Assembly: GCF_037042905.1 (NCBI RefSeq)
Contig: NC_087250.1
Span: forward strand, 5,334,001 to 5,398,000
From: Lytechinus pictus
Taxonomy: Eukaryota
Direction of reading: 5' to 3'
Length of the DNA stretch: 64,000 nt
The notes beneath the pieces are model-generated. The model was not told where the DNA came from and made no database searches. It saw nothing but the letters and a program-made list of their open reading frames with translations. Within the stretch, counting starts at the first letter, position 1. Every line of letters begins with the position of its first letter. Positions 7,198 through 59,400 of this stretch are shown in pieces. The position numbers and the translations under genes are program-made.

Positions 7198-8106
7198 CTA
7201 TGCAACCTTAGCGAGATGACCGCGCCTGGCCTATCAATCATGGTACCAAAGTTTATTTCTAGAATCAACACAAATTTTAGTCAACAATTTTATGGAATGC
7301 TATGTGGTTCAATATATTTCTTTAATATTCATCAAAATCAGTACAATATTTTCAATTATACGATCATTTTTCGTAATAAAAGATATAGAAATTGATAAAT
7401 AAAATGAAGTTATTTTGGAGCAAATTTGACCATATGCTTAAAAATCATTTGTTCTTTGTGAACATGGTGAATGAGGTGACAGGCAACCCATCCCTTCTGA
7501 TGCACTTTTTTTTACAATAAACGTGTACAAAATTTACCATTCAGCTTATGTTTTTACATTCCCACCCACCCACCCCCACACCAACTGTCTAAACAATCAA
7601 CAATAGTTCCAATTCATGATATTACCAAGCCGCGTGTTCATGATGTATGCAACGTTCAAATTTTTCGGTTGGATGCTGCGCTTGAAAAGCTGTAAGAGCT
7701 TGACGTTGGATTAACAAAAAAACATAAAGACGATAACAATAAGTCGGAATAATGGAAGTATGAATCTATATTGGTATATTTGGGAATCCCAAAGTTAGCC
7801 TTCGATCAACGACAATTCAATTTGAAGTTATTGGGTGATATCAATCGTACACAGATTTAGAATCAACACGAATTCTAGTCAACACTTTTATGGAATGCAG
7901 CATACTCCTTCAATATTCATTAGAAATTAATTACAATATATGATATCCTCATACATTTTTTCCTAATTAGAGTCTGAGATACAAATAAAATTAATGTGGG
8001 AACTAGATGTCTCCTTCCTGTGTTTGTGCTTGACCTGTGTTTGGTCATACCCGAAAATAGAGCTATCAGAGGAATATATCTTGCTTTGATCTTAATCTTA
8101 ATTTAA

Positions 8107-8705
8107 AGGACAAGTCCACCCCAGCAAAAACTTGATTTGAATAAAAGGAGAAAAATTCATCAAAACACTGAAAAATTCATCAAAATCGGATGTAAAATAA
8201 GAAAGTTATGACATTTCAAAGTTTCGCTTCATTTCACAAAACAGTTATATGTACATCTCGGTCGGTATGCAAATGAGGGAACTGATGACATCACTCACTC
8301 ACTATTTCTTTTGTATTTTATTATATGGAATATGAAATATTTTGATTTTCTCGTCATTGTCACGTGAAATGAAGTTTCATTCCTCCCTGAACACTTGGAA
8401 TTCCATTATTTTAACATTTTGTGATTCAGGCAAGGAGGTCCTAATCATCAAATTCGTAAAAATTGAAATATTGTATAATTCAAACAATAAAAAACAAAAG
8501 AAATAGTGAGTGAGTTACATCATCAACTCTCTCATTTGGATGTAACTGGCTCGTTTATACAACTATTTTGTTACAAATAAGCGAAACTTTGAAATGTCAT
8601 AACTTTCTTATTTTACATCCGATTTTGATGAAATTTTCAGCATTGTGCTTGTCTGATTTTTCTCTATTGATTTCAATCAACATTTTTTTGAAGTGGACTT
8701 GACCC
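8107..8705. mobile_element. Kolobok-like MITE
   Basis: TTAA|AGGACAAGTCCAC ... GTGGACTTGACCC|TTAA with long imperfect inverted arms. A related partial copy lies at about 10590-11665. Confidence 0.7.
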
Positions 8706-8721
8706 TTAAGGAAATTATTAT

Positions 8722-8920
8722 TTCAATGATAATGATAATAATTGATAATTATGATAATAATAAGAAGAATTATAATATCAATAACAGTGATAACAGTAAT
8801 AAGAATGATAACAGCAATGATCATAATGATAATAATAATAATTAAAATATTAATAATAATAATAATAATGATAATTATAAGAAGAATGATGATAACAATT
8901 ATAAATGATAACGATAATAA
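8722..8920. repeat. Degenerate (AAT)n microsatellite
   Basis: ATA/ATG/AAT triplet run. Confidence 0.85.
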
Positions 8921-8987
8921 CTTTCTCTGAATTGTAAGATTCATTTTCCAATTCGTCAAATGATCTGACTTGAAATAAAGTCATTAG

Positions 8988-9515
8988 TTATTGGACCAGT
9001 AACACCAGTTTGGTATAACTACTTTGCTTCGACTGGAATGCGATTGTTTAAACTGGTCTCCAGTTGATTTTTAATTGGACCAGTTAAAAATCAACTGGTC
9101 CAGTAAACATAAACTGGAAACCAATAAAAATCTACTGAAAACCATTTATTGGACCAGTTGAACCAGTTTGATGAAAAACAATTTAACTGGTATCACTAAT
9201 TTGTTTCAACTGGAATGCAATTGATGGAACTGGTCTCCAGTCGATTTTTAATTGGACCAATTAAAAATCAACTGGTCCAGTAAACATTTACTGGAAACCA
9301 GTAAAAATCTACTGAAAACCATTTATTGGACCAGTTGCACCAGTTTGATGAAAAACAATTTAACTGGTATTACTAATTTGTTTCAACTGGAATGCAATTG
9401 ATGGAACTGGTCTCCAGTTGATTTTTATTGGTCCAGTTAAAAATCAACTGGCCCAGTAAAAATATACTGGAAACCAGTAAAAATTTTACTGGTCTTACTG
9501 GTTTTTCCTTCTGGG
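8988..9515. repeat. About 177-bp tandem subterminal repeats ending in CTGGG (right end of a CMC-like element)
   Basis: About 3 units rich in AACTGG/CCAGT; TTATTGGACCAGT at 8988, 9146 and 9323; ends TTCCTTCTGGG. Confidence 0.55.
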
Positions 9516-11028
9516 ATGTTAGCTCCAATTATCAATGTTACTACTCTGGTTCTGTTTATGATAACTCCCGTAGAACGTTTTGTTGTTAAACGCCAAGCTG
9601 GTATATAACCAATTACCTAGGAAGCATTTTACGTCTAGGTTAATCAGTCATAATGGCTGACCTTGTAGACAACATATAATTACTCTCGGGCCTTTTTGTC
9701 AAAGTGGGGATTCGAACTCACAACCTTGCGATTATGAGTCCAACCACTGAATCACACGATCCGATGTTTCGTTCATGTATCATGTGATGTATTGTTCCAT
9801 GTACTTGTACCTGACAGCGAAATTTGGTAATAAATTCAATTCAGTAATGTGACTGTACGCACGCCGATAATAATTATCCATCGTCATGTGAGCAATGTGG
9901 CGCCAAACTATCAGCGCCTTGTATACAAGTCATAGGCGTAGACTATAAACACAGCATCATGCGATTTCTCACAAAAGTTTGCATCACAATTTGAAATGGA
10001 TACACAAAAGCAAAAAAGGATTAAAATGATATTTCTAACTTACTCTTTTGCAGTGCACCTTGAACCAGATTGTGCAGTTGAAAATGGATTTAATCCATGG
10101 GTTGAGAGTGAAATTAGCTGGGGGATTTTTGTTGCTAAGCGATATCATGCAGCAAGCGCGGCGGAAGTTGGGCTCGGTGGTGTGGGGATTCCCCATCGAA
10201 ATCCGAAATATATTTGATGTATGTAATCTCACAAATTTATTGTAATAAAAATGTTTTTCCCCTTTTTAAACCAGACCTGTTCTGTAAAATTCTATAAAAA
10301 TTGTATAAAATCTTTCCTGCTTTAACAATTTACAGAATAATTTGGTTACTTCTCTTCTTTCTGTAAAATCTGTTGTTTTTTTTTCTTCTGTAAAATATTC
10401 TGTTTTTTTTTCTAGCAGTGTATCTTTGTCCAATCATTCCCCTTTTATATATTTTTTCTTTTTCATTTTTGTTGGATTGACATTCATTTTACCCATAGAT
10501 GAAAGTGTAAAGCAAGCAAACTATTAATGCTCCATATGTACTCTTAAAATGTTTGGCAACATTTTAGGCTCTACTGTCCACACAGCAATCGGTTATAAAA
10601 GTTTAGCTTAATTTCACATAATAGTTATATGCACATTCCGATCGGCATGCAAATGAGAGAACTGATGACATCACTCACTCACTTTTTCTTTTGTATTTTA
10701 TTATAGGAAATGTGATATATTCTAATTTTCTCCTCATTGTCCCGTGAAACATAGTTTTATTTCTCCCTGAACATGTAGAATTACCATTGTTTAACATTAT
10801 ATGGTTCAGTCAAGTTGGTCCTTATTGTCAAATCTGTAAAAAATGAAATATTGTATAATCCAAACAATAAAAAGGGAAAGAAATAGTGAGTGAGGGACAT
10901 CATCGATTCCCTCATTTGCATGTGACTAATTTGTGCATATAACTATTTTGAGAAAAATAAGCAAAATTTTAAAATGTCATAACTTTCTTAATTTACGTCC
11001 GATTTTGATGACATTTTCAGCATTATGC

Positions 11029-11606
11029 CCCCCGGGGGGGGGGGGGCACTCCCATTCACGAGTGGATACCATGCGCGACCATGGGGTCTCGAAAAGCACC
11101 CTAAACACGTAATTTCCATATTCTGAAAATGCACCCCTTAACAAGTATTGACGTGTGAAACCCTACCCTTAACAAGTATTGGAAACAAAATTATACTCTT
11201 GGCAAATGTTCCCTGAAATTAACCCCTACACAAGTACATGAATGTTTTATTGTTACGGGTCCTTCGGTCGTCGGCTTTACCATGTTTACCTTATTTGGTT
11301 TAGTACGACCCCACCTTCTACACCTCGCGCAAATTGGACTCTAAACACGAAGTGTTGGTGCAAAAAGGACATCCTTTATAAAACATTTTAATTTTGTTTT
11401 ATCATCCCCCGCAAATTCGACCCTAAACGCGTAATTGTCCTAGCGAAATAGATACCCTTTTTTCATTATTTTTGTGTTTTTGACACCCTTATCACGTTAC
11501 GTACGTAACGTGACCTATCGTGAAAAAGACATCCTTTTTACGTGTTTTTGTTTTTTTGGTCGCGCATGGTATCCACTCGTCAATGTAAGTGCCCCCCCCC
11601 CCCGGG
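11029..11606. mobile_element. MITE with CCCGGG termini, inserted in a Kolobok-like MITE
   Basis: Arms GAGTGGATACCATGCGCGACCA / TGGTCGCGCATGGTATCCACTC; CATTATGC duplicated at 11021-11028 and 11607-11614. Related inverted fragments lie at about 39390-40180. Confidence 0.75.
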
Positions 11607-11796
11607 CATTATGCTTGTCTGATTTTTCTCTGTTGATTCAAATTTTTATGAGGTGGACTTGACCTTTAAGAGTGTGATATACATGATACAGTAAAACACT
11701 GTTCATGCAACTCTGTTTTCTCTGCAGCATTTATAAAGCGCTTAATACAATATTTCAAGCTTAAAAGTGCCACTCGGATGTTCAGATGATCTCTAC

Positions 11797-19290: not shown

Positions 19291-20469
19291 TTAGAAATCA
19301 TGTGGAAATCCGGTTGGTTCAAAGCAAGAACTTAATATATCATCACGGACAGAAGGATGCTCTGCTTCCTGGTGAAACTTTCGCAGCTTGTCTTCATCAT
19401 CCAATAATTTCGAGACCAGTTTACACATATATGGTGGATACAGAACAACTGCTTCACCAAGTATTTTTACCGATCCATGTTTTTTCCACTCGAAGTATGA
19501 ATTGTATAGGGCATCATTTGAATCTAAAAGATGAATATAATCGACCAATTCCTGGAAGCTTTTGAAATCTTGTAAATGTATGAACGAGTTTGGTGGCGCT
19601 ACGCGCTCATAATCTACCCGCGGTGGACCATACACGATGGGCACGACATCATTCAATAGAGCGTTAGACCAGAACTTCTCGGTGATGTAGTCCCGGCATT
19701 CGCTGCTCTCAAGAGACAGATAAAACTTGTGATTCTTGATTATGTTCCTGCATTCTTTAGAAAATCGATCGCAAGTCATGTTTCCGCAACGACCATACAT
19801 GTCGACGCTTACGTGCTTCGCGAGCGTTTTCACAAATTCGTGGCGGCGCCAGGTTGTTCTTCCGCAATTGGTTGCCGCCCATGCCACCAAGGCACTTTTC
19901 TCCTTCGCCCAATTTCGACTTTCACCTGATGATATTTGTGGAAGAGTTTTGTTGTAAAGTCCATACGGACTAAGAATCGTTGCCGTTGGCATATACGACA
20001 TCGTGTAGTTATATAAACGATCAAGTTTAACTGGTGGCTCTGCATGTTTGGACGTATACCGAGGACTCTCTAAAGAATAAAACACCCATGCCTGATTCAG
20101 TGGGCGTCTCTTCTGCATCTCCGTCCAATCCCAACTCGAACCATGAAAGAACACGATTGCATCACTATTCGCCATAGTTTCATAACTTTTGTCAAGAATA
20201 TAACTAAGCCCACATTCCAGACCTGGGCATTCTGATTTTTTCGGAGTCCCGGGACTCCTTTTGCCCGCCCACACCTGTACCTGACGGTAACAAGATAATC
20301 CCTTTTCCGACTGGCCACTTGCATTTCCATACATCGGAGATCTCGCCCCACGGACTTCCGAGGAGAAACGGGCAATTGATCTAGCTGGTCCATCAGTTGA
20401 CAAACATATTATGATGAGTGCTGCTAAGCAAAATGGTATTATGCGCCTACCATCCTTCCTCTTCATCAT
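19291..20469 (-). CDS. Alpha-1,3-fucosyltransferase (glycosyltransferase family 10), single coding exon, type II membrane protein
   Basis: Basic tail plus hydrophobic anchor (MMKRKDGRRIIPFCLAALIIICLS), then SDAIVFFH, WVFYSLESP, VDMYGRCG, KFYLSLESSECRDYITEKFWSNAL..VVPIVYG, PPNSFIH and YNSYFEWK. The ORF is open to 20595; the ATG at 20469 fits the expected topology better. Confidence 0.93.
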   Translation of the reverse strand: MMKRKDGRRIIPFCLAALIIICLSTDGPARSIARFSSEVRGARSPMYGNASGQSEKGLSCYRQVQVWAGKRSPGTPKKSECPGLECGLSYILDKSYETMANSDAIVFFHGSSWDWTEMQKRRPLNQAWVFYSLESPRYTSKHAEPPVKLDRLYNYTMSYMPTATILSPYGLYNKTLPQISSGESRNWAKEKSALVAWAATNCGRTTWRRHEFVKTLAKHVSVDMYGRCGNMTCDRFSKECRNIIKNHKFYLSLESSECRDYITEKFWSNALLNDVVPIVYGPPRVDYERVAPPNSFIHLQDFKSFQELVDYIHLLDSNDALYNSYFEWKKHGSVKILGEAVVLYPPYMCKLVSKLLDDEDKLRKFHQEAEHPSVRDDILSSCFEPTGFPHDF

Positions 20470-22229
20470 TATTTGATATTTCAAGAAGACCGTAGCTAAT
20501 CCGATGCATTGAGAGAGTGAAATGAAGTGCAATGCAACTTCTCCAACAATATTCACTCTATCGCATTTCACGTCCGATCGAGTATAACGAAGCATAATAA
20601 AATTGAATGAATGGCCATACCTTTAGGCCTATTCATGGAGGGTTCACCGTCGACCTGCCTGTGCTTATGCCTCCGTGTCCCTCCGTGCATGACCTTGGCC
20701 ATTCGACTACAGAGCGTATCAAAATAAAATACACACTTTTGAAAAAAAAATCATCATATAAACGGACATGTTTCAACATCATGAAGCTTTTCCTGATGTA
20801 GTATGTATTATTGGTATAGGGGGTACGAGTCTCTTTTTGTAGATGAATGGCATTATGGATCCCGATAACGCCATCGATCCGCTTGAGTGGGCTCCACCAT
20901 CTAGGCCTCGTTAGCCTATGTCATAAAACTTCGTGAAAAATGACGCTTGCAACCGTTTGAAATGGTAATACACTTATAAAAGTAGACGTAAACTTTATAA
21001 GAGCACTGACATGGACCGTAGTTTGTCAAAAAATTAAAATCTAAAGAGTGTAATTTCCTTTAAAAAATATTTTCATTTGCCGAGCAAATTCCCTCCAGCC
21101 TCCATCCCTACCACCTACCCCAACACCGTCGCAATGAACCTAATTAATTGACGTCAGTGATCATGATTAAAATTGTGATCCAGTCATTGGGAACAGTTGG
21201 GGATTTCTACCTCCTCACGAAAGACTACTGATCCAACAAGCTCAAAATTAAGGCACCTAGCATTTTTGCCATGTTACCTTTACTTCAAGAGTTGCAGCTA
21301 GCGATTCCAGAGATTATGATGTCGTCTATTATGACTCTCCTGGTGATTGTCAGGCTATACGCCATCCAAGAGTATTGACCAATATGTGCCCGTAACTGCT
21401 GTTTATAGTCGCTCGTCTGCTGTTTTGGTCGCATCGAGTGATCGAGTCAGAGTCATCGAACGATCAGGGAGATGCATAAATGGTAAAATGGAACGTCATC
21501 AGAGTCAGATGAGCCCCAAGATTCTTTGAGCGTCTGGCGTTGCACAAGTCAATATCTGATATATCGATGTCTCACACGATTCCGAACCGATCTTTCAATG
21601 GTCTTTGTGGTCTCTTATGGGCTCCAAGACTTCTTGGACCGGTTCGAATAGTCTTTCAGCAGTCTTCCAGGAAGTCGGACTTTTTGTGGTTTTTCAGTTG
21701 TCCTTCAGCGGTCTATTGAACTTCCAAGGTCTTGTTTGGTCTTTCTATGACCATACAGTCTCTCCTTTTTTGCGGAGATCACTGAAAGATCGCCTCATGG
21801 GAGATCCGTGACAGACCAGGGGTCGTATACTTTCAAAGAGTTGTTGTAGGAGTTTATTTTGAAACCAATGTATTGAATGATTCTATTTCCTTTGATGTTA
21901 CCTCTCCTTTGATCTCACCACTTTTACATTGACTCCTTTATTTATCCCGTGCTTTACATTATTATCTCATGCTTAACATTCCCTCTGTTCTTTTCTTCAT
22001 GTTCATTCCATGGTTCAGTTGATTTACTCTGAATGGTTTAGCCTTTAGTAATAAGTCATGTTTATTCATAGAAGCTCATTTATATTCATTCGAAAGCCTT
22101 TTATATTCATGTACTTCTTTTTTATACAAATTATCTCATTTGAATATCTATTGTTAAACAAATTATTCATGCAAATAACACCTGAGGTTGAGGTTGGTAC
22201 ACCACAGGCAGATTACCACAGGCAATCAT

Positions 22230-48120: not shown

Positions 48121-50303
48121 CACCAACACCAGATTTCAACACTGTACTTGAAAATCATCCAATGACTGTTGCCTTGCCCTTGGTATCGCATACTCGTTCC
48201 CACTCACACGTATTGCGAGGTTAGTATTAGTCACTCACACAAGCTAATTACGAGGTTAGTTAGTATGTTATACTGTGCAGTGACTGGTGTTAAGTACTAC
48301 TTTACTACTACTTACATCAATATACTAGCGTCGGACTGTACGCGCACAGAAGCTGACTCCGGGATCTTTCGGAGGGGATCAATGGTTGCAGTTACTGATT
48401 ATCTGCAAGTGCAAAGAAAATTCCACTGTAGATTGTAGGTCCTAAATATGCAGCTTATAAGTACTGTTCCAGGTCACTAGATATTCTGGAATTTAATTGT
48501 CTATGTCCACTATCCAGTCCAAATTCTGCCAGATTCTTCAAGTTCAAAATTGAAGGAAGCAGACTACACACACATGACAGAATGAGTCCGACGTCGCGAC
48601 TTATTCTGCGCATCAGAATAGTATGGTATTTTTAAATAGGCACATTTGATGCTTGTATTTCCTTCTTCAATTTCTTCAAGTTATGTGACGGTAGGCCTAT
48701 GACATATCTCGTACTTACTGTGAAAGGCCTAGCCAGCTGCAAAGGACGAGGGCGTTTCTGGAAATTCTGGTCTTGAACTACATTTTTTTTCTTGTTTTTC
48801 TCCTTTATTTTCTACATTAATCGACACATTTGCATCCCCCGGTGCATGCAGCCTCTCTATTCTACCCCATCTTATTTTTGTTTTCCCCTTAGACTTAGTT
48901 TGAGTTCCTCTTTCCCTTCCCATTATTTCCTTCTCTCTCGATTTCTTTTCCCCTTATTGCTGGGGGATACCAAGGGTGACATGGATAGACAAGCAAACTT
49001 ACTTGATCGACACCCCCCCCCCCCCTTGGCCCCATTGGAAATTATGCGAGTAGTCGTCTGTATATCATTATCAATTCTCCAATGAACCAGTTTCTAACGT
49101 TCTCAACACTGTGTATATTATGCCGGGATATTATGTTGACTGTCAAACAAATATCCAACAAACTATAGTTTCCAACATTGTGTCAATGTTAACTGTCAAC
49201 AACTCTCCAATAAACTATTCCAATTACGCTGTCCACGTTGTGCCATTGTCCGTTGTTCAACAACTCTCCATCAAACTAGTTTCCAACTTTGTCAACGTTG
49301 TGCCATTGTCGACTGTCCAACAAATCTCCAAGAAAATAGTTTCCAACGTTGTTCCTTTGTCGGTTGTTCAGCAACTCTCCATCGAACTAGTTTCCGACGT
49401 AGTCAACGCTGTGCCTTTGTTGGCTGTTCAACACCTATCCAATCAAACACGCGTTTCCAACGTTGTGACGTTGTTGGCCGTGTCCAACAAATCTCCAACA
49501 CACTAGTTTCCAATGTTGTGCAATTGTCTGTTGTTCAACAACTTTCCAACGTTGCCAACGTTGTGTCATCGTCGACTATCCTACTGATCTCCAATCAACC
49601 AGTTTCCAACGTTGTGCCAGTGTCAGTTGTTCAACAACTTTCCATCTAACTAGTTTCCAGCTTTATCAACGTTGTGTCATTGTATACTATCTAACTAATC
49701 TCCAATCTACCAGTTTCCAACGTTGTGCCATCGTCGACTATCCAACAAATCTCCATCGAACTAGTTTCTAGCTTTGACAACGATGTGCCATAGTTGGTTG
49801 TTCAACAACTTTCCATCGAACTTGTTTCCAACGTTGCCAACCTTGTGTCATCGTCGACTATCCAACTAATCTCCAACCTACTAGTTTCCATCGTTGTGCC
49901 ATTGTCGACTGTCCAACAACTCTCCAACTAACAAGTTTCCAACGTTGCCAACGTCGTGTCATTGTTGATTGTTCAACAACTTTCCAGCGAACTAGTTTCC
50001 AACGTTGCCAACGTTGTGCCTTTGCTGGCTGTCAACAACTATCCGATCAAACGTGTCTCCAACGTTGTGACATTGTCGACTGTCCAACAACTCTCCAACT
50101 TACTAGTCTCCAACGTTGTGCCATTGTCGACCGTCCAACAAATCTCCAACAAACTAGTTTCCAACTTTGTCAACGTTGTGCCATTGTCGGTTGTTCAACA
50201 ACTTTCCAGCGAACTAGTTTCCAACGTTGCCAACGTTGTGCCTTTGCTGGCTGTTCAACAACTATCCAATCAAACGTGTTACCAACGTTGTGACATTGTC
50301 GAC

Positions 50304-50639
50304 TGTTAAGACCGTGTCAGCATATACCACGTTGTCACAATAACCACAAAGGAGGCGTATTCTAAAATTAGCTTCCTTTTAATACTTGGAAGTATCTCAG
50401 TAGCGGTGCTAGCTTGTAGCATATATTCAACAACTGTGTGTGAATCCTTCAGTTTTGTATTAAAAAACGAAGAAAACTCGGGATCGACCAAGGTCGATGT
50501 ACCTTCGAACGGTCTTGTTTTAGCTGTGACCTTGCTTTGACCTTGAAGGGTAATTAGTCTAAACTCAAGTACATGCAAAAAACCAAACATTTCAAAAGGC
50601 AACAATATCTGAATATCAAAACTATGTCATTCTATGACA
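50304..50639 (-). repeat. 3' LTR (336 bp)
   Basis: TGTTAAGACC...TCTATGACA on +; matches 56097-56433 except for one A in an A-run. Confidence 0.96.
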
Positions 50640-50652
50640 TCCCAACCCCCTA
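50640..50652 (-). other. Polypurine tract
   Basis: AGGGGGTTGGGA on the - strand directly precedes the 3' LTR. Confidence 0.75.
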
Positions 50653-53800: not shown

Positions 53801-56059
53801 CATCTTGTTCCCTGTTTCCCTGTCTTGTTGCAACTCATCCTGCGTCACCAGCCGAGAGACACCCCTTTCCAGTTGATCCTTCATTTGCCGACAGTAGACC
53901 TCCCATTCCTTTGGGCGATTTCTGAACTGGTTCTCAAGGCTCTTCTGTCTCTTTACAGCGTACTCATAGTTATCTGGTAACCCTTCTGGAGATCGCTTCC
54001 AGGGTAAGCGGATCTCATAAGAACCATCTGGTAGTTGATTGACACTCTTCATCATGGATTCAGTAGCTCCTTTCTCATCATCAGAAATGCACTTGCATTT
54101 CCTGGGTTCCAAGCCAGCCGTCTCGAGTCCAATGAACTCCTCTAGGGATCCTGAAGCGACCACGTTAACGTAGTTAAGAAGTGGTGCTGTGTTAGATGGA
54201 CCTCCTTGAATAAACCAACCTAGGGGACATCTTACCGCAACTGGTTCATCGGGTCTGCCTCCTCTGATATATTCCTCCCAGACCATAAGGTGAGTATTGT
54301 CCACTCCAAGTAATATATCAATTACTGGTGATGAGGCTTCATCAATATTTACACCTGTCAGGTGGTCATAGGATTTCAGCTGCTCAGGAGTAATGACAGG
54401 TATATCTCCACAGGGTTTCTCGATCTCAATGGCTCTCAAGGGATATGAACAATTTCCTTGGCTATCCTCGATTTCACATTCCAGGATCCTCAGCTTGCGT
54501 TTGATGATGCTTCCACCTACAAGGCTCAGGTCATGGTCCTGGTAACAGTCGCCATCAATTCTGGAAAAGATTCCTGTTCTTACGAGGGTGGCCTGACTAC
54601 CCCCATCTATCAGGATGCGTACAGGGTGTCGTTTGTTACCACATCGCAGAAAACCCATCACAGTTGGTAAGGTAGCCTGCAGTTTCCCTACTTCTGTGCT
54701 TGTAGAAGATTGAACTGAGCTGTTGGAATGCATGGGTCTCACAATGTCTTCTTGATTAGCACTGACTCTTCGACTCTGATATCTGGCATCATCATGGGCT
54801 TTGGTACAAATGGCGGGAAAGTGCTCATCACTACCACACATCTGGACTCGACATGGTGACCTGAACTGGCACTTACTGTGGTCATAAGGTGGCTTGCCTG
54901 AGATACAGTTATTATGGCCACACCTGAAGCAGATGTTGTTAGACTTCATCACATCAAATTTCTCCTTTAGCACAAGAGACCTGAATTTATTGCATGTTTT
55001 CAGATAATGAGATGAGGTCTTTGGGTGCAGAGGGCACTTTGGGATGTGTGCAGTTGATGTATCCTCCCTCGACATGGCTGCGTTGAAGGACTTTGAAACT
55101 CTCTTTGTAGGTTCCAAGCTTTCAGATGTAGTAGATTTTGATTTCTCAATTAGGATGTGCTGTTGATATAGCCATTTGCTGAGTCCTGAGAGGGAATCAT
55201 CAGTATTGTCATCGCGAACACCTTTGTAATACAGAATCCTATGTTCCTCTGGGAGCTTCAACTTGATTTGGCTCAGCATAATCCTGCTATTCATCTCACC
55301 TGCTAAACCAATCGTCTCTGCTTGGCATTCAAAATTCTGAAGAACCTGGATGAAGTTTGCCATTGCAGGAAGATTAACCTTTCCTTTACTCTCATATGGC
55401 TTGAGACTATCCAAATCCTGTAGCAGTCTGTCAACTACTCGGTCTTTGTCATCAAAGCGTTGGTCTAGCATCTCCCATGCTCTTGCTACACTCGAACAGC
55501 TTTTGACCAAGTTTCTTTCCTTCTGAGACATCATTGATTCTGACAACTGGAAGAAACATTCAATCTCCGACAGTTCCTTCGTACAATGTTGGAACATTTC
55601 CTTGAATCTCTGATATTCCCTGATATCTCCATTGAATGTTGGGAATTTAAGTCTCGCCATCCTGGGAGCACAGGCACCTGCAGATTGATTCCGAGAGGTA
55701 GGAGCAGGAGAGCTTGGAGGAGTAGTTGACTGTTGATTGGATGCTTGGTTGATTGATGATGGCGACAGCTGTTTGCTGAGGATTTTCCTACCATCATTAA
55801 TCTTCTGGACAAAGTCTGCCTCACAGTTGACCATCCAGGTTTCCTCTGCTTCAAATTCAACGTCGTTCTCTATTACCTGTACAAGCTCTGCGTGCGTCTC
55901 TTCTACCCTTGCGAACTGTTCCTCGGCCTTGTCGATGTACTGCTTGAGGAGACTAGTATCTGCAGAGTCATTGGAGAGGTTGACAATAGCTGTTAATGTC
56001 CTCGTCAATTGTCCCTTCAGATTGCGCCTCGAAACCTTTAGAGCCTTTGTGTCAGCCAT
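50834..56059 (-). CDS. BEL/Pao Gag-Pol polyprotein (Gag, Cys/His knuckles, protease, RT, RNase H, integrase)
   Basis: RLKFPTFNGD (Gag); ILIDGGSQATL (protease); FLPHFAV, ADISKMF and FYMDD (RT); HGFSDAS and WTDSM (RNase H); H..HGGH..CIPC, VDYLGP, SDNATCF and GAVERMV (integrase). The order PR-RT-RH-IN and these motifs fit BEL/Pao. First ATG at 56059. Confidence 0.96.
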   Translation of the reverse strand: MADTKALKVSRRNLKGQLTRTLTAIVNLSNDSADTSLLKQYIDKAEEQFARVEETHAELVQVIENDVEFEAEETWMVNCEADFVQKINDGRKILSKQLSPSSINQASNQQSTTPPSSPAPTSRNQSAGACAPRMARLKFPTFNGDIREYQRFKEMFQHCTKELSEIECFFQLSESMMSQKERNLVKSCSSVARAWEMLDQRFDDKDRVVDRLLQDLDSLKPYESKGKVNLPAMANFIQVLQNFECQAETIGLAGEMNSRIMLSQIKLKLPEEHRILYYKGVRDDNTDDSLSGLSKWLYQQHILIEKSKSTTSESLEPTKRVSKSFNAAMSREDTSTAHIPKCPLHPKTSSHYLKTCNKFRSLVLKEKFDVMKSNNICFRCGHNNCISGKPPYDHSKCQFRSPCRVQMCGSDEHFPAICTKAHDDARYQSRRVSANQEDIVRPMHSNSSVQSSTSTEVGKLQATLPTVMGFLRCGNKRHPVRILIDGGSQATLVRTGIFSRIDGDCYQDHDLSLVGGSIIKRKLRILECEIEDSQGNCSYPLRAIEIEKPCGDIPVITPEQLKSYDHLTGVNIDEASSPVIDILLGVDNTHLMVWEEYIRGGRPDEPVAVRCPLGWFIQGGPSNTAPLLNYVNVVASGSLEEFIGLETAGLEPRKCKCISDDEKGATESMMKSVNQLPDGSYEIRLPWKRSPEGLPDNYEYAVKRQKSLENQFRNRPKEWEVYCRQMKDQLERGVSRLVTQDELQQDRETGNKMWFLPHFAVVKDSKTTPVRVVYDGKAKFQGHSLNDYLIKGENVNSNLFEVALRFRENEVGVIADISKMFQAIKIPPDDARFHRFVFRENPNYPMQVYELRTVTFGDKPSPTAAIVTLRHVASEHAPDEDKLQKVITEQFYMDDLNESVRTTEEALELKSKLTDTLKKGNFNIRKWQSNVKKVCDETENTETATVLGTSWDLSKDTLSVKKVKPSDDTTLTKRKILAQTASYYDVFGMLSGLLVRPKILLQMLWQIDLDWDSPIDKSSELYAMMSKINRDLDKMDGIEIPRCLIPEPYRGKRPLPTAYMHGFSDASEDAMGFTVWLRWSHTDSQQAHLSFVCARSRVTPLKQTSMPRKELQALLLLSRLMYTIRSALRLNIEGWKIWTDSMTVISWLRGQSKTFRSYVAHRVGEITSEFDPYSDIAYVPTDENAADLISRGGDVTDMQEVIDGPGFLRLPPQSWPKTPENIPVKPGDPERKKFHSRNSKTFALSVNAVSKNSPIVDATKLSSWSRLQMVTARVLSLKELPRNQWLKQLIRQISEWPSQRMIKEAELYWVRQAQKGIYFQDPNIQKLSPFFDEDQQVYRVGGRLGRAPLSYDVRHPYLLPKNSHISFLLVRDRHLHALHGGHLRTANEVRKRIWIVGDMNIARRVVRCCIPCRRYRGRPAHQRMADLPEFRISPCSPPFKTTLVDYLGPVMVKLNRNTTTKGYCALFTCAVTRAVHLTVVQDLSTQAFLQALERFVSVRGAPAMMVSDNATCFRGADNTINELNLKLNQTQVREHCQRFKIEWKFGPPGGPHHQGAVERMVQEVKKAMRHLVKADRLTFVEWETIFCRISGLINSRPLTAMSSSPMDHPPITPNHFLIGRGELTCPDIPCEDYKGDPRKRRELCNKMVDGFWHRWLGYIHKLTPRQKWQHSAENMEKNDIVLVIGDDKRRGSWKMAEVVDTKPGQDGLVRIVEVKFADGTCANRPITKLVSLMKREERSDI

Positions 56060-56096
56060 CTTGCGTTGATAATATACAACCAAGTTGTTGAAGAAC

Positions 56097-56433
56097 TGTT
56101 AAGACCGTGTCAGCATATACCACGTTGTCACAATAACCACAAAGGAGGCGTATTCTAAAATTAGCTTCCTTTTAATACTTGGAAGTATCTCAGTAGCGGT
56201 GCTAGCTTGTAGCATATATTCAACAACTGTGTGTGAATCCTTCAGTTTTGTATTAAAAAAACGAAGAAAACTCGGGATCGACCAAGGTCGATGTACCTTC
56301 GAACGGTCTTGTTTTAGCTGTGACCTTGCTTTGACCTTGAAGGGTAATTAGTCTAAACTCAAGTACATGCAAAAAACCAAACATTTCAAAAGGCAACAAT
56401 ATCTGAATATCAAAACTATGTCATTCTATGACA
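56097..56433 (-). repeat. 5' LTR (337 bp)
   Basis: Direct repeat of 50304-50639; ATTAAA on the - strand at 56171-56176. Confidence 0.96.
56219..56262 (-). promoter_or_regulatory. Predicted LTR core promoter (TATA-like box and initiator, +1 about 56228)
   Basis: The - strand reads TTTTTAATACAAAA, then CAGTT about 28 nt after the TAATA start; this lies upstream of the ATTAAA signal. Confidence 0.5.
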
Positions 56434-59400
56434 GTCGACTGTCCAACAACTCTCCAACTAACAAGTTTCCAACGTTGCCAACGTCGTGTCATTGTTGATT
56501 GTCCATCATCTTTCCATCAAACTAGTTTCCAACGTCGATTCAACGTTAATCCATCAAGTTTTTCCAACGTCCAACGACTTTCAAGTTTCCAACGTGGAGC
56601 CAACGTTGGCTTGTTACCTGGGATTGTATGTAAGGTGATTGAATTATTCGTTGAGCGTAATTATCAAATGAATTACAAGGAAAGAGGATCTTCTGGCAGG
56701 ACCCCTGTCGATACGATCGATAAACTTGACAATACATAATCCAGTCTAGTCCTATACCCGTGTTTCATCATCATCTGCTGTAATCTTCAAAGGGCTCTGC
56801 AGCCTATCACGAAGATGAACTGAAACTTGGACGCACGTTATGAGGAGGAGTGAGGAATATTTTCAAGGTGATTTTGCAGAAGCTTTTGAAAGCTGTCAAG
56901 CGAGACTGCATTAACTATTTGGAAAGGGAGTTTATTCAATTCAGGTACAGATCGTTGGGCAAAGGCAAATTTGTCAATATTGCCTCTTGGACGATATGTC
57001 TGAAAACACTTGTGATTTTTCCTAGTGACAGTGGTGCTTAAAGAGAAGAATTTGTCTTGGGGTATTGCAGCAAGGTCATTTACAATCCTTTACACCATGC
57101 TGAGTCTGCTTACAGTGCGTCGAGAAGACAGACTAGGCCACTTCAGATTGGTGAGCATGCTGGTTACGCTGCTGGTTCTACTGTAATCAGCTAAGACATA
57201 GCGAGCCGCTTGCCTTAATTTGGATTCTTTCCAAATTCTGTGTATCCATGATAGAGTTTCTGTGTCCGTAGAACTATTTCAGGTCCAAACTAGCGACACG
57301 GCTGTCCATACACGTTATTATGATCCGCAAATGGCTGCAATTTTATAAATTTTGCAAAGATAATTCTTTATATTGTTCTACCTTTATGTCATTCTATGTT
57401 ACATATCATAATTTTTCATTTCCTTTGGTTTTGTATTGATTTTGTTTATTTATTTATTTATTTTGTTTTATTTATTTTATACTGCAGGGTAGGCCTGTTC
57501 AGTTCTTAAAACTGCTTTACAAAGGCGCCCTGCAGTTTAAAATACATGTCAAGATAACTATGAACAACAACAACAAACAACATCAAAAATACAAAATACA
57601 AAATATCTAACATCAGAAACAATTAACACCAAAATATAGAGTGGGAAGTGACAATTTAAACATACATAGCATTGTAAATCAATGGAATATCATTTCGCTC
57701 TTTATCAATTCGTATGAAAGGCTTGCTCGGTGTGGTCGGAGATTTCCTTGATCACCAGGCAAACCAGCGTGTGCAATTGTTAATGTACACATATCCTATG
57801 GGGCCATCCTAATTCTGTGTTACAGATATTGGAATTGAACAGGAGCTAAATCACATGGTAATAGTGTGAGTGGTTATTTGGTAAATTTGATGTTCTCAAC
57901 TTATTTAGCACATAGGCTTAGCAAGTCACAAGTCGAATGAAGTGAAGGCTCTCGACAGCTGGCGAGGATTCAGGGGGGGGGGGGGTTATGCGATTGTGGC
58001 AGAGGTGCGTTCACACCCAATAAGAATTAAAATCTAGGTAAAAAAAAAAAATTAGATCCAAGTTTTAAATGGTGCCGCTCGCCGGCGCGGCCGGCCCGTG
58101 GCCGTACTGGTATAGCCTATATAGGCTTAGATCTATCATAAATTATCTTTGACTTTGCGCACCCACGTGAAATGAGCCATGGCATAGCTCTCCCTATTAA
58201 AAAAAGATTGAATGTCCAAATTGGGGGGAGACGATATAATGCTCTTCATTTGTGTGCGATTATGAAGTTCGTTTTGCTTTTATTTTTCTGAGTTATTTTT
58301 TAAAACAAATTACTATTTAGCATCCTATAAATTTTGACACTGAATCTGCAATAGCATCGGTGTTATTGGGGTAAATACATTTAATTATTGTTGATAATGT
58401 CTCTTAATCTGTTTTTTGAAAAATATTGTCGTACCACATAAAGTTAAGAGTCTAGTCACACCTAACCTTAAATAGCATGTAAAGGTTAGAGGTCTCTTCA
58501 TTAGAAAAAAATATAGGCGAATATGTAATGGACCTCATCAATCCCAAGTATTTTTCTGCCTTGAATCTCATATTAAAGTTCCATTGAACAAAGGTCACAG
58601 TCCAGAAATAGTTGGCAGTTTGATGGGGATGCAATTTGCTGCAGTTATGAATTAGGAGCCTATTCATATCTTTTTATTAATTTGATCGTGGCTTTTAACC
58701 GGCAAGGTATCCAAGCGCTATTGGGTTCGAAAAAACTTTTCTTTTTATATTTGAATAAAAAAAAAATTATTGAAAAAACTGTTTTACTATTCGTATGGTT
58801 AATGTGTTAATGACCGTCTTGTTTATAATCAAGTGAAAATTATATGAATTAACGAACATGATTGGTATATTTGATTATTCTCCTTTATGAAATGTCAACA
58901 ATATTCATTGACAGTGGAGTATTTTTCAATGATCACTGTGTAAATCTACATATTTTCTTTGCTACATGTATATCAATGTGATATTATTAATATTTTAATT
59001 TCAGACTATGGATATTTGAACAATATGCAGAAGAAGACGGGTCTGGAACTAGAAAGCTAGGCTCTGACTGGTCTACTACAGAAAGGAATGTGCCAGCGGC
59101 CAATCTAATGAACATGTGGCAGAAGATTTGGCCATGTGTGAAGAAATACTGAGATTGAAATGCTACCACAGGTAAAATGTAGACTAGTAAAATGCGATAA
59201 TGATTACAAATTAAATAATGAAGGATATTTTTTTGGTTGCAGAATGTTAAATCATTAAAACCCACTTCAATGACAATGAAATCAGACTTTGACCAGATTT
59301 TCTAGTTAAAGTCAGTTTGTAATGCAAACATTACATAAACATGAAAGACATATAAAAAAATCAATATGTTTTACATGTTAGCTGCAGGGTCAGCGGAACG

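Follow-up and report, generated by a model that had tools for sequence, protein, structure and literature searches.

How does a retrotransposon begin reverse transcription when no site for a host tRNA 3' end adjoins its 5' LTR? The question is raised by an element on the minus strand of the window, by which we mean the whole 64-kb stretch of Lytechinus pictus DNA analyzed here; a first-pass annotation had read it as an intact BEL/Pao retrotransposon and a candidate for priming with the first nucleotides of its own RNA. Direct-repeat comparison delimited a 5' LTR of 337 nt with TGT...ACA ends (56097..56433, minus strand) and a 3' LTR of 336 nt (50304..50639, minus strand), which differ by a single T indel in a T run (at 56255) and share 99.7% identity over 339 aligned columns. 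The pair is bordered by the TSD GTCGAC (upstream copy, 56434..56439; downstream copy, 50298..50303; both read on the minus strand), and the element lies inserted in a satellite array with units of 51–60 nt and a higher order of 111/171/222 (49173..50297, resuming at 56440 and running to approximately 56610), in whose neighboring units the target site without the insertion, ...GGACAGTCGACAATG..., is legible. A polypurine-rich tract, AGGGGGTTGGGA (50640..50651, minus strand), abuts the 3' LTR on its upstream side.

Between the LTRs, a single gag-pol ORF of 1741 aa (P0001; 50834..56059, minus strand) carries the domains DUF1759, RVT_1, Peptidase_A17, Integrase_H2C2, rve_3, and DUF5641. Pfam scored Peptidase_A17, the Pao family, at 4.6e-38, DUF5641 at 5.1e-23, DUF1759, which represents gag, at 5.6e-09, RVT_1 at 1e-07, and Integrase_H2C2 at 4.1e-05. 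Pao-type pol domains and a DUF1759-type gag in one frame are the coding features of BEL/Pao (Belpaoviridae), and TG..CA LTR ends, a TSD, and a purine tract before the 3' LTR are the structural ones. LTRs that are one indel apart, a 6-bp TSD, and an open 1741-aa frame with all BEL/Pao domains indicate a young copy. The annotation had called the element intact and BEL/Pao. The minus-strand element at 56433-50304 is indeed an intact, autonomous, and recently inserted BEL/Pao LTR retrotransposon of the Belpaoviridae type, a point on which the LTR pair, TSD, reading frame, and Pfam domains all agree. In so complete and recent a copy, the letters adjoining the LTR should still be those written by the last reverse transcription.

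In a large protein collection, the closest proteins to P0001 came from Lytechinus pictus itself (98% identity) and Strongylocentrotus purpuratus (86%), followed by Diadema and a sea cucumber; this group of homologues spans 59–98% identity, and the next relatives reach at most 37%. Members of the Tf1/sushi clade have a Ty3/gypsy-type pol and usually an integrase chromodomain, whereas the Pfam domains and homologues of this element lead to BEL/Pao. The element does depart from the family description in one respect, the PBS for a host tRNA 3' end; because such a site is a descriptive rather than a phylogenetic feature of the family, the assignment to BEL/Pao by protein homology stands. Elsewhere in the window, the minus strand has a 443-codon ORF (19291-20622), probably a host gene with a single exon, that encodes a fucosyltransferase domain (Glyco_transf_10, 2.8e-56) together with the corresponding N-terminal domain.

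Read along the minus strand, the 5' LTR ends in ...GGTCTTAACA (56097) and is followed by GTTC (56093..56096), TTCAACAACT (56083..56092), and then TGGTTG. This bears out the earlier reading of the junction, in which ...CTTAACA runs into GTTC and no TGG adjoins the LTR: the sequence holds no TGG within 14 nt downstream of the 5' LTR end, and the first one occupies 56082-56080. Even this TGG is replaced by TTG (3/3 reads) in another copy of the element that is represented among the reads of X12, one of three rRNA-depleted paired RNA runs with the same species label (X10, X11, and X12; approximately 6% of each run). The copy in the X12 reads leaves the 10-mers discussed below unchanged, has two leader differences (56079 and 56081) just past the 10-mer, and lacks one T at 56255 (8/9 reads).

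For comparison with tRNAs, we used the approximately 190 tRNA 3'-terminal 12-mers that a 2026 survey of metazoan retroelements provides in the sheet tRNA_types of its supplement file 2 (PMC13524379). Compared by eye, the four TGG-containing 12-mers that lie no more than 50 nt from the LTR end have at least four mismatches to every 12-mer in that sheet, and neither the last eight letters of these four nor the complement of the candidate PBS has an exact match in the supplement (PMC13524379). The expectation that the candidate PBS would correspond to no tRNA 3' end therefore held for these approximately 190 metazoan 12-mers. The 64-kb window contains no tRNA genes, and a tRNA scan of 33 fetched loci gave one tRNA (Arg), too few for a tRNA panel. 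A search of Rfam gave no family for either LTR or leader, and two sub-threshold snoRNA-like matches within pol. The TGG positions and the comparison with tRNA 3' ends show that the element has no tRNA 3'-end primer site adjoining its LTR.

To place this junction among its relatives, a profile search provided 88 environmental loci at 26–55% identity, 80 of them from metagenomes and eight from genome assemblies. The best metagenome match (L001, 55% identity) spans 2.7 kb and includes no LTR, the other metagenome loci lie at 27–40%, and the eight genome-contig loci at 26–30%; a search with the single P0001 sequence gave no DNA of close relatives in metagenome, viral, or genome contigs, and one with the alignment A1 none in viral contigs. 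Six of these animal-type BEL/Pao loci (L082, L083, and L085-L088) sit in records labelled as bacterial MAGs or endosymbionts (Nitrospirales, Rubritalea, a beetle Wolbachia, and others) on contigs of up to 2.6 Mb, which suggests that the records include host or eukaryotic sequence. Self-comparison delimited the LTRs of 12 elements, either as a full pair or as a complete copy with a truncated partner, and 11 of these 12 have a TGG site 0–9 nt past the LTR. The site reads TGGTCCTTCGAGCCGGA in nine elements (L038, L040, L042, L048, L062, L067, L082, L085, and L087) and is a variant in the other two; its first 12 letters recur in 13 of the 43 loci with upstream sequence, adding L005, L029, L046, and L083. 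The complement of TGGTCCTTCGAGCCGGA ends in CTCGAAGGACCA, which the supplement of PMC13524379 gives as the 3' end of tRNA-Tyr(GUA). For BEL/Pao, the ICTV profile describes priming by host tRNA from an 18-nt PBS for tRNA-Arg or tRNA-Gly 3' ends (PMC8742986), so that the general statement that BEL/Pao elements are tRNA-primed is true of the profile as of our panel. That a tRNA-Tyr site dominates the environmental panel is an observation in its own right, as tRNA-Arg and tRNA-Gly are the only ones named in the profile (PMC8742986).

A relic of the tRNA-Tyr site in the sea urchin element was considered and rejected: GTTCTTCAA agrees with GTCCTTCGA in 7/9 letters, a score equaled by 2122 of 20000 shuffles and hence not significant. 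The one panel element without a TGG site, L043 (78-100; 34% identity to P0001), continues from its LTR into TTTTTTGCCGACCCCACCAGG and has neither a TGG nor a complement of its LTR, so that non-canonical primer sites do exist in BEL/Pao. We also looked for self-priming in other BEL/Pao loci by comparing the last 150 nt ahead of the gag start codon with the 1.5 kb upstream, which, among the loci whose match extends into gag, gave only local palindromes and short matches. At L065, a separate small LTR element (7698-11673) lies beside the BEL/Pao match and has GGTTATGGGCCCAGTC directly after its LTR, which we take to be a copia-type half-tRNA-iMet site.

What adjoins the LTR of the sea urchin element instead is a complement of the LTR itself. 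The candidate PBS TTCAACAACT is the exact complement of AGTTGTTGAA (56219..56228, minus strand; position 206/337 of the LTR), the proposed nucleotides 1-10 of the transcript and putative self-primer, and the 3' LTR has the identical letters at 50426-50435. The match reported earlier between 56092-56083 and both 56228-56219 and 50435-50426 is accordingly correct to the base. At its edges, C 56229 faces T 56082 and T 56218 faces C 56093; both edges being unpaired, the duplex is exactly 10 bp long, with G-C pairs at 3/10 positions and an energy of approximately -10.8 kcal/mol. The Tf1 self-primer pairs over 11 nt, one more than the 10 bp found here. The 4-nt gap between LTR and paired segment, which the annotation had held to be a weakness, is ordinary for the group, given that the tRNA sites of the other BEL/Pao elements begin 0–9 nt past the LTR. 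A plant survey accepted as self-primers, in its in-silico criterion, complements of at least 10 bp that start 0–5 bp after the 5' LTR (PMC6317226); the element, which lacks a tRNA site, falls within this definition at its lower limit, with 10 bp and an offset of 4 nt.

How often would such a match arise by chance? Among 40000 dinucleotide-shuffled LTRs, 290 (0.7%) had a complement of at least 10 nt at offsets 0–5 after the LTR, and widening the offsets to 0–8 gave 0.85% in dinucleotide shuffles, irrespective of whether the LTR or the leader was shuffled. The chance of approximately 0.002 estimated previously was thus several-fold too low, the shuffles giving 0.7–0.9%, which is still a low figure. 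Real elements provide a second comparison: across the panel of 12 further BEL/Pao elements whose LTRs are defined, the longest complement of this kind between LTR and leader was 4–7 nt, with 0/12 reaching 8 nt, although these represent approximately eight families and are hence not fully independent. When each LTR was paired with the leader of another element, 0/156 combinations reached 10 nt and 2/156 reached 9 nt. A 10-nt complementarity is uncommon against both shuffles and real BEL/Pao elements.

The position of the 10-mer within the LTR bears on whether it could form the 5' end of the RNA. Its first letter is the A in ACAGTT, an initiator-like CA, and the complementarity ends exactly at this proposed start, A 56228 forming the first pair and C 56229 remaining outside the duplex. 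Upstream lies the TATA-like TTTTAATACA (56249..56258, minus strand), recognized as a motif only, with its TAATA at 56255; downstream, 52 nt from the start of the 10-mer, lies ATTAAA (56171..56176, minus strand), the sole AATAAA/ATTAAA in the LTR. The promoter-like setting that the annotation had pointed to is therefore present in all its parts, with TAATA 27 nt upstream of 56228 where approximately 28 nt had been given. On these motifs, a transcript start is predicted at A 56228, and R could start there. A second TATA-like motif, TATAT, is found at LTR position 216, directly after the 10-mer, and could set a start at approximately 56185; in that case the 10-mer would belong to U3 and be missing from the 5' end of the RNA.

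In approximately 6% of each of the three RNA runs, no pile-up of read starts or ends was seen at 56228 or elsewhere on the element, X12 contributing 30 reads in all. Part of these 30 reads fall on the flanking satellite, and X12 is the sole run with reads on gag; X10 and X11 cover the satellite only, save for a depth of at most 1 over 56085-56258 in X11. All X12 reads on the element belong to one strand class (first mate on minus) and, by the usual dUTP convention, probably represent RNA antisense to the element. Their depth is 7.5–9 upstream of 56228 and 5.6–7.4 downstream, and 1 in the last 30 nt at the 5' end of the LTR, the X12 depth rising at approximately 56404. A look-up of sequencing runs gave no RNA run indexed as containing the element. 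Most transcripts of the self-primed Tf2 can originate at a start that does not yield the self-primer, according to passages in PMC5341516, and bulk reads consequently need not reveal the replication-competent start. In the run X9, from a second organism, the assembled contigs include near-identical pieces of the element (55796-55966, 56322-56433, and the 3' junction) as well as the satellite at a word depth of approximately 175. One further X9 contig, of 182 nt, matches the element only at 56209-56241, 33 nt that comprise the proposed start and the 10-mer, and is unlike it upstream; this contig may be an LTR variant sharing only this core, or a graph artefact.

Folding predictions gave an answer that depends on the length of the RNA. 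In RNAs of 149–199 nt starting at 56228, the 10 nucleotides are predicted to pair with the candidate PBS at a mean probability of 0.75–0.95, and from 229 nt upward little of the predicted pairing survives (0.15 at 279 nt, at most 0.006 at the other four lengths). Compared with shuffles, the folds show no excess stability (z of -0.55 and +0.16). In silico folding neither supports nor refutes self-priming.

Taking the anatomy, the complementarity with its rarity, and the missing tRNA site together, we consider it on balance probable that the element primes its minus-strand DNA with its own RNA in the manner of Tf1, and we infer start site, cleavage, and priming as follows. Transcription would begin at A 56228, and nucleotides 1-10 of the RNA, AGUUGUUGAA, would fold back across approximately 136 nt of R-U5 onto UUCAACAACU, located 4 nt past U5. 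The RNase H of the element would then cleave after nucleotide 10, and synthesis from the freed 3' OH would proceed through GUUC, U5, and R; the resulting minus-strand strong-stop DNA would transfer to the 3' R. When the plus strand later copies the 10-nt RNA primer, a perfect site would be renewed in each new copy. A copy this young, whose plus strand had copied the 3' end of the primer, should have letters next to the LTR that mirror the 3' end of the last primer used, and the R start of the element, cut behind nucleotide 10, is the only RNA known to us whose end letters would fit.

The observations can also be read in other ways. The complement may be a coincidence and the primer a cellular RNA paired right after the LTR, such as an internal tRNA fragment (a half-tRNA of the kind found in copia or Ty5-type elements), a tRNA without CCA, or another small RNA; we regard this as possible, if rather unlikely. 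Half-tRNA primers are known from Ty1/copia lineages, as the plant survey relates (PMC6317226), L043 likewise manages without a TGG site or an LTR complement, and chance matches of at least 10 nt, found in 0.7–0.9% of shuffles, gain weight from the very many elements that have been surveyed; the RNA reads, at approximately 6% of three runs, with no start at 56228, are in keeping with it as well. Against this, a coincidence of less than 1% would have had to land also on a CA of initiator type that follows a TATA-like motif by 27 nt and precedes the sole ATTAAA. No such primer is known for BEL/Pao, where the priming passage of the ICTV profile gives only the 3' ends of tRNAs (PMC8742986), and neither Rfam, searched over LTR and leader, nor the tRNA 3'-end catalogue provided a match. 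Alternatively, the pairing may be functional and yet involve no primer, the leader joining the 3' LTR copy (cyclisation) or two genomes joining each other (dimerisation or packaging) in aid of strand transfer or packaging, which we judge improbable. In Ty1, the CYC5:CYC3 cyclisation pairs a region of the 5' leader with sequence near the RNA's 3' end, and the element resembles it in the short complementarity of its 5' leader to sequence close to the RNA 3' end. A start after the second TATA-like motif would leave the 10-mer only at the 3' end of the RNA, as would suit cyclisation, and the loss of most of the 5' fold-back in longer RNAs in silico points the same way. Ty1 also carries a normal tRNA-iMet site, however, whereas the paired segment is the only visible primer-site candidate in the sea urchin element: a pairing of this kind leaves the missing primer site unexplained, and it would occupy the very place, 0–9 nt past the LTR, where the primer sites of the other BEL/Pao elements lie.

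The flanking satellite introduces a further reading, since AGTTGTTGAA occurs seven more times in it on the strand of the element, inside a near-palindrome, GTTGTTGAACAAC. The opposite satellite strand matches the region of LTR end and leader at 16/17 letters, and the insertion point lies 11 nt past a one-mismatch copy (AGTTGTTGGA). All three RNA runs contain satellite reads from both strands, with a depth of approximately 2–15 per direction (56434-56493). Satellite transcripts containing AGTTGTTGAA might hence anneal to the site as primers, or both motifs might derive from satellite-like sequence. We hold either to be very improbable: no defined 3' end is known for the satellite RNA, the presence of the 10-mer within the LTR itself would be left unexplained, BLAST found no similarity between element and satellite beyond the 16/17-letter match, and the element inserted later and has a TSD of its own. 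That element and satellite share the 10-mer may reflect chance, a common protein-binding motif, or a target preference.

Priming by the element's own RNA would have precedents outside BEL/Pao. Self-priming has been established in Tf1 and Tf2 of Schizosaccharomyces pombe and proposed for Tj1 of S. japonicus and for the Tf1/sushi group, in passages of PMC4600332 and PMC5341516, which also describe how the RT/RNase H of Tf1-type systems cuts the RNA and thereby frees the primer. As in these systems, the sea urchin element has no tRNA site, and the site adjoining its LTR pairs with an LTR segment, here the proposed 5' end of the RNA. Tf1, however, is a Ty3/gypsy chromovirus of fission yeast, whereas here the element is BEL/Pao, the host an animal, and the start and cleavage are predicted from sequence. 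In plants, self-priming has been predicted for Tcn1, a gypsy lineage, and TAR, a copia lineage, from the same signature, with 10 bp or more of complementarity beginning 0–5 bp after the 5' LTR (PMC6317226); those predictions cover many elements per lineage and ours a single one, and superfamily and host kingdom differ. With canonical Belpaoviridae (genus Semotivirus), the element shares its coding architecture, Pfam families, TG..CA LTRs, short TSD, and purine tract, but it differs from them in having no tRNA-type PBS.

We found BEL/Pao self-priming in none of the titles and abstracts returned by a full-text literature search (including PMC2206039, PMC4659654, and PMC2656454), a search whose scope takes in few subscription journals. 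The passages drawn on from PMC5445492, PMC3601003, and PMC6317226 do not mention it, and the BEL/Pao surveys PMC3118150 and PMC554778 contain no passage with "PBS", "tRNA", or "primer binding". The first-pass annotation had suggested an independent origin of the mechanism, and the element does stand outside the Tf1/sushi clade; as self-priming has already been predicted in Ty1/copia (TAR) in addition to Ty3/gypsy, BEL/Pao would be the third superfamily rather than the second. Whether a BEL/Pao lineage of sea urchins has dropped the tRNA primer of its distant relatives, which in our panel is mostly tRNA-Tyr, in favor of its own first 10 nucleotides, and so represents a third independent origin among superfamilies and the first in Belpaoviridae, is in our estimation evenly balanced.

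The case for self-priming is a plausible prediction from a single locus, where the pairing has the minimum length allowed by the published criterion and the start is a predicted one. If it is correct, each of the three large LTR superfamilies would include self-priming elements, demonstrated in Ty3/gypsy, predicted in Ty1/copia, and now proposed for BEL/Pao, and exchanging a host tRNA primer for RNA of the element itself would appear to be an easy and recurrent step. The family description of Belpaoviridae would then need correcting, and the failure of annotation tools that seek tRNA sites on such elements would be explained. The sea urchin copy would, moreover, open the mechanism to study in an intact element from an animal.
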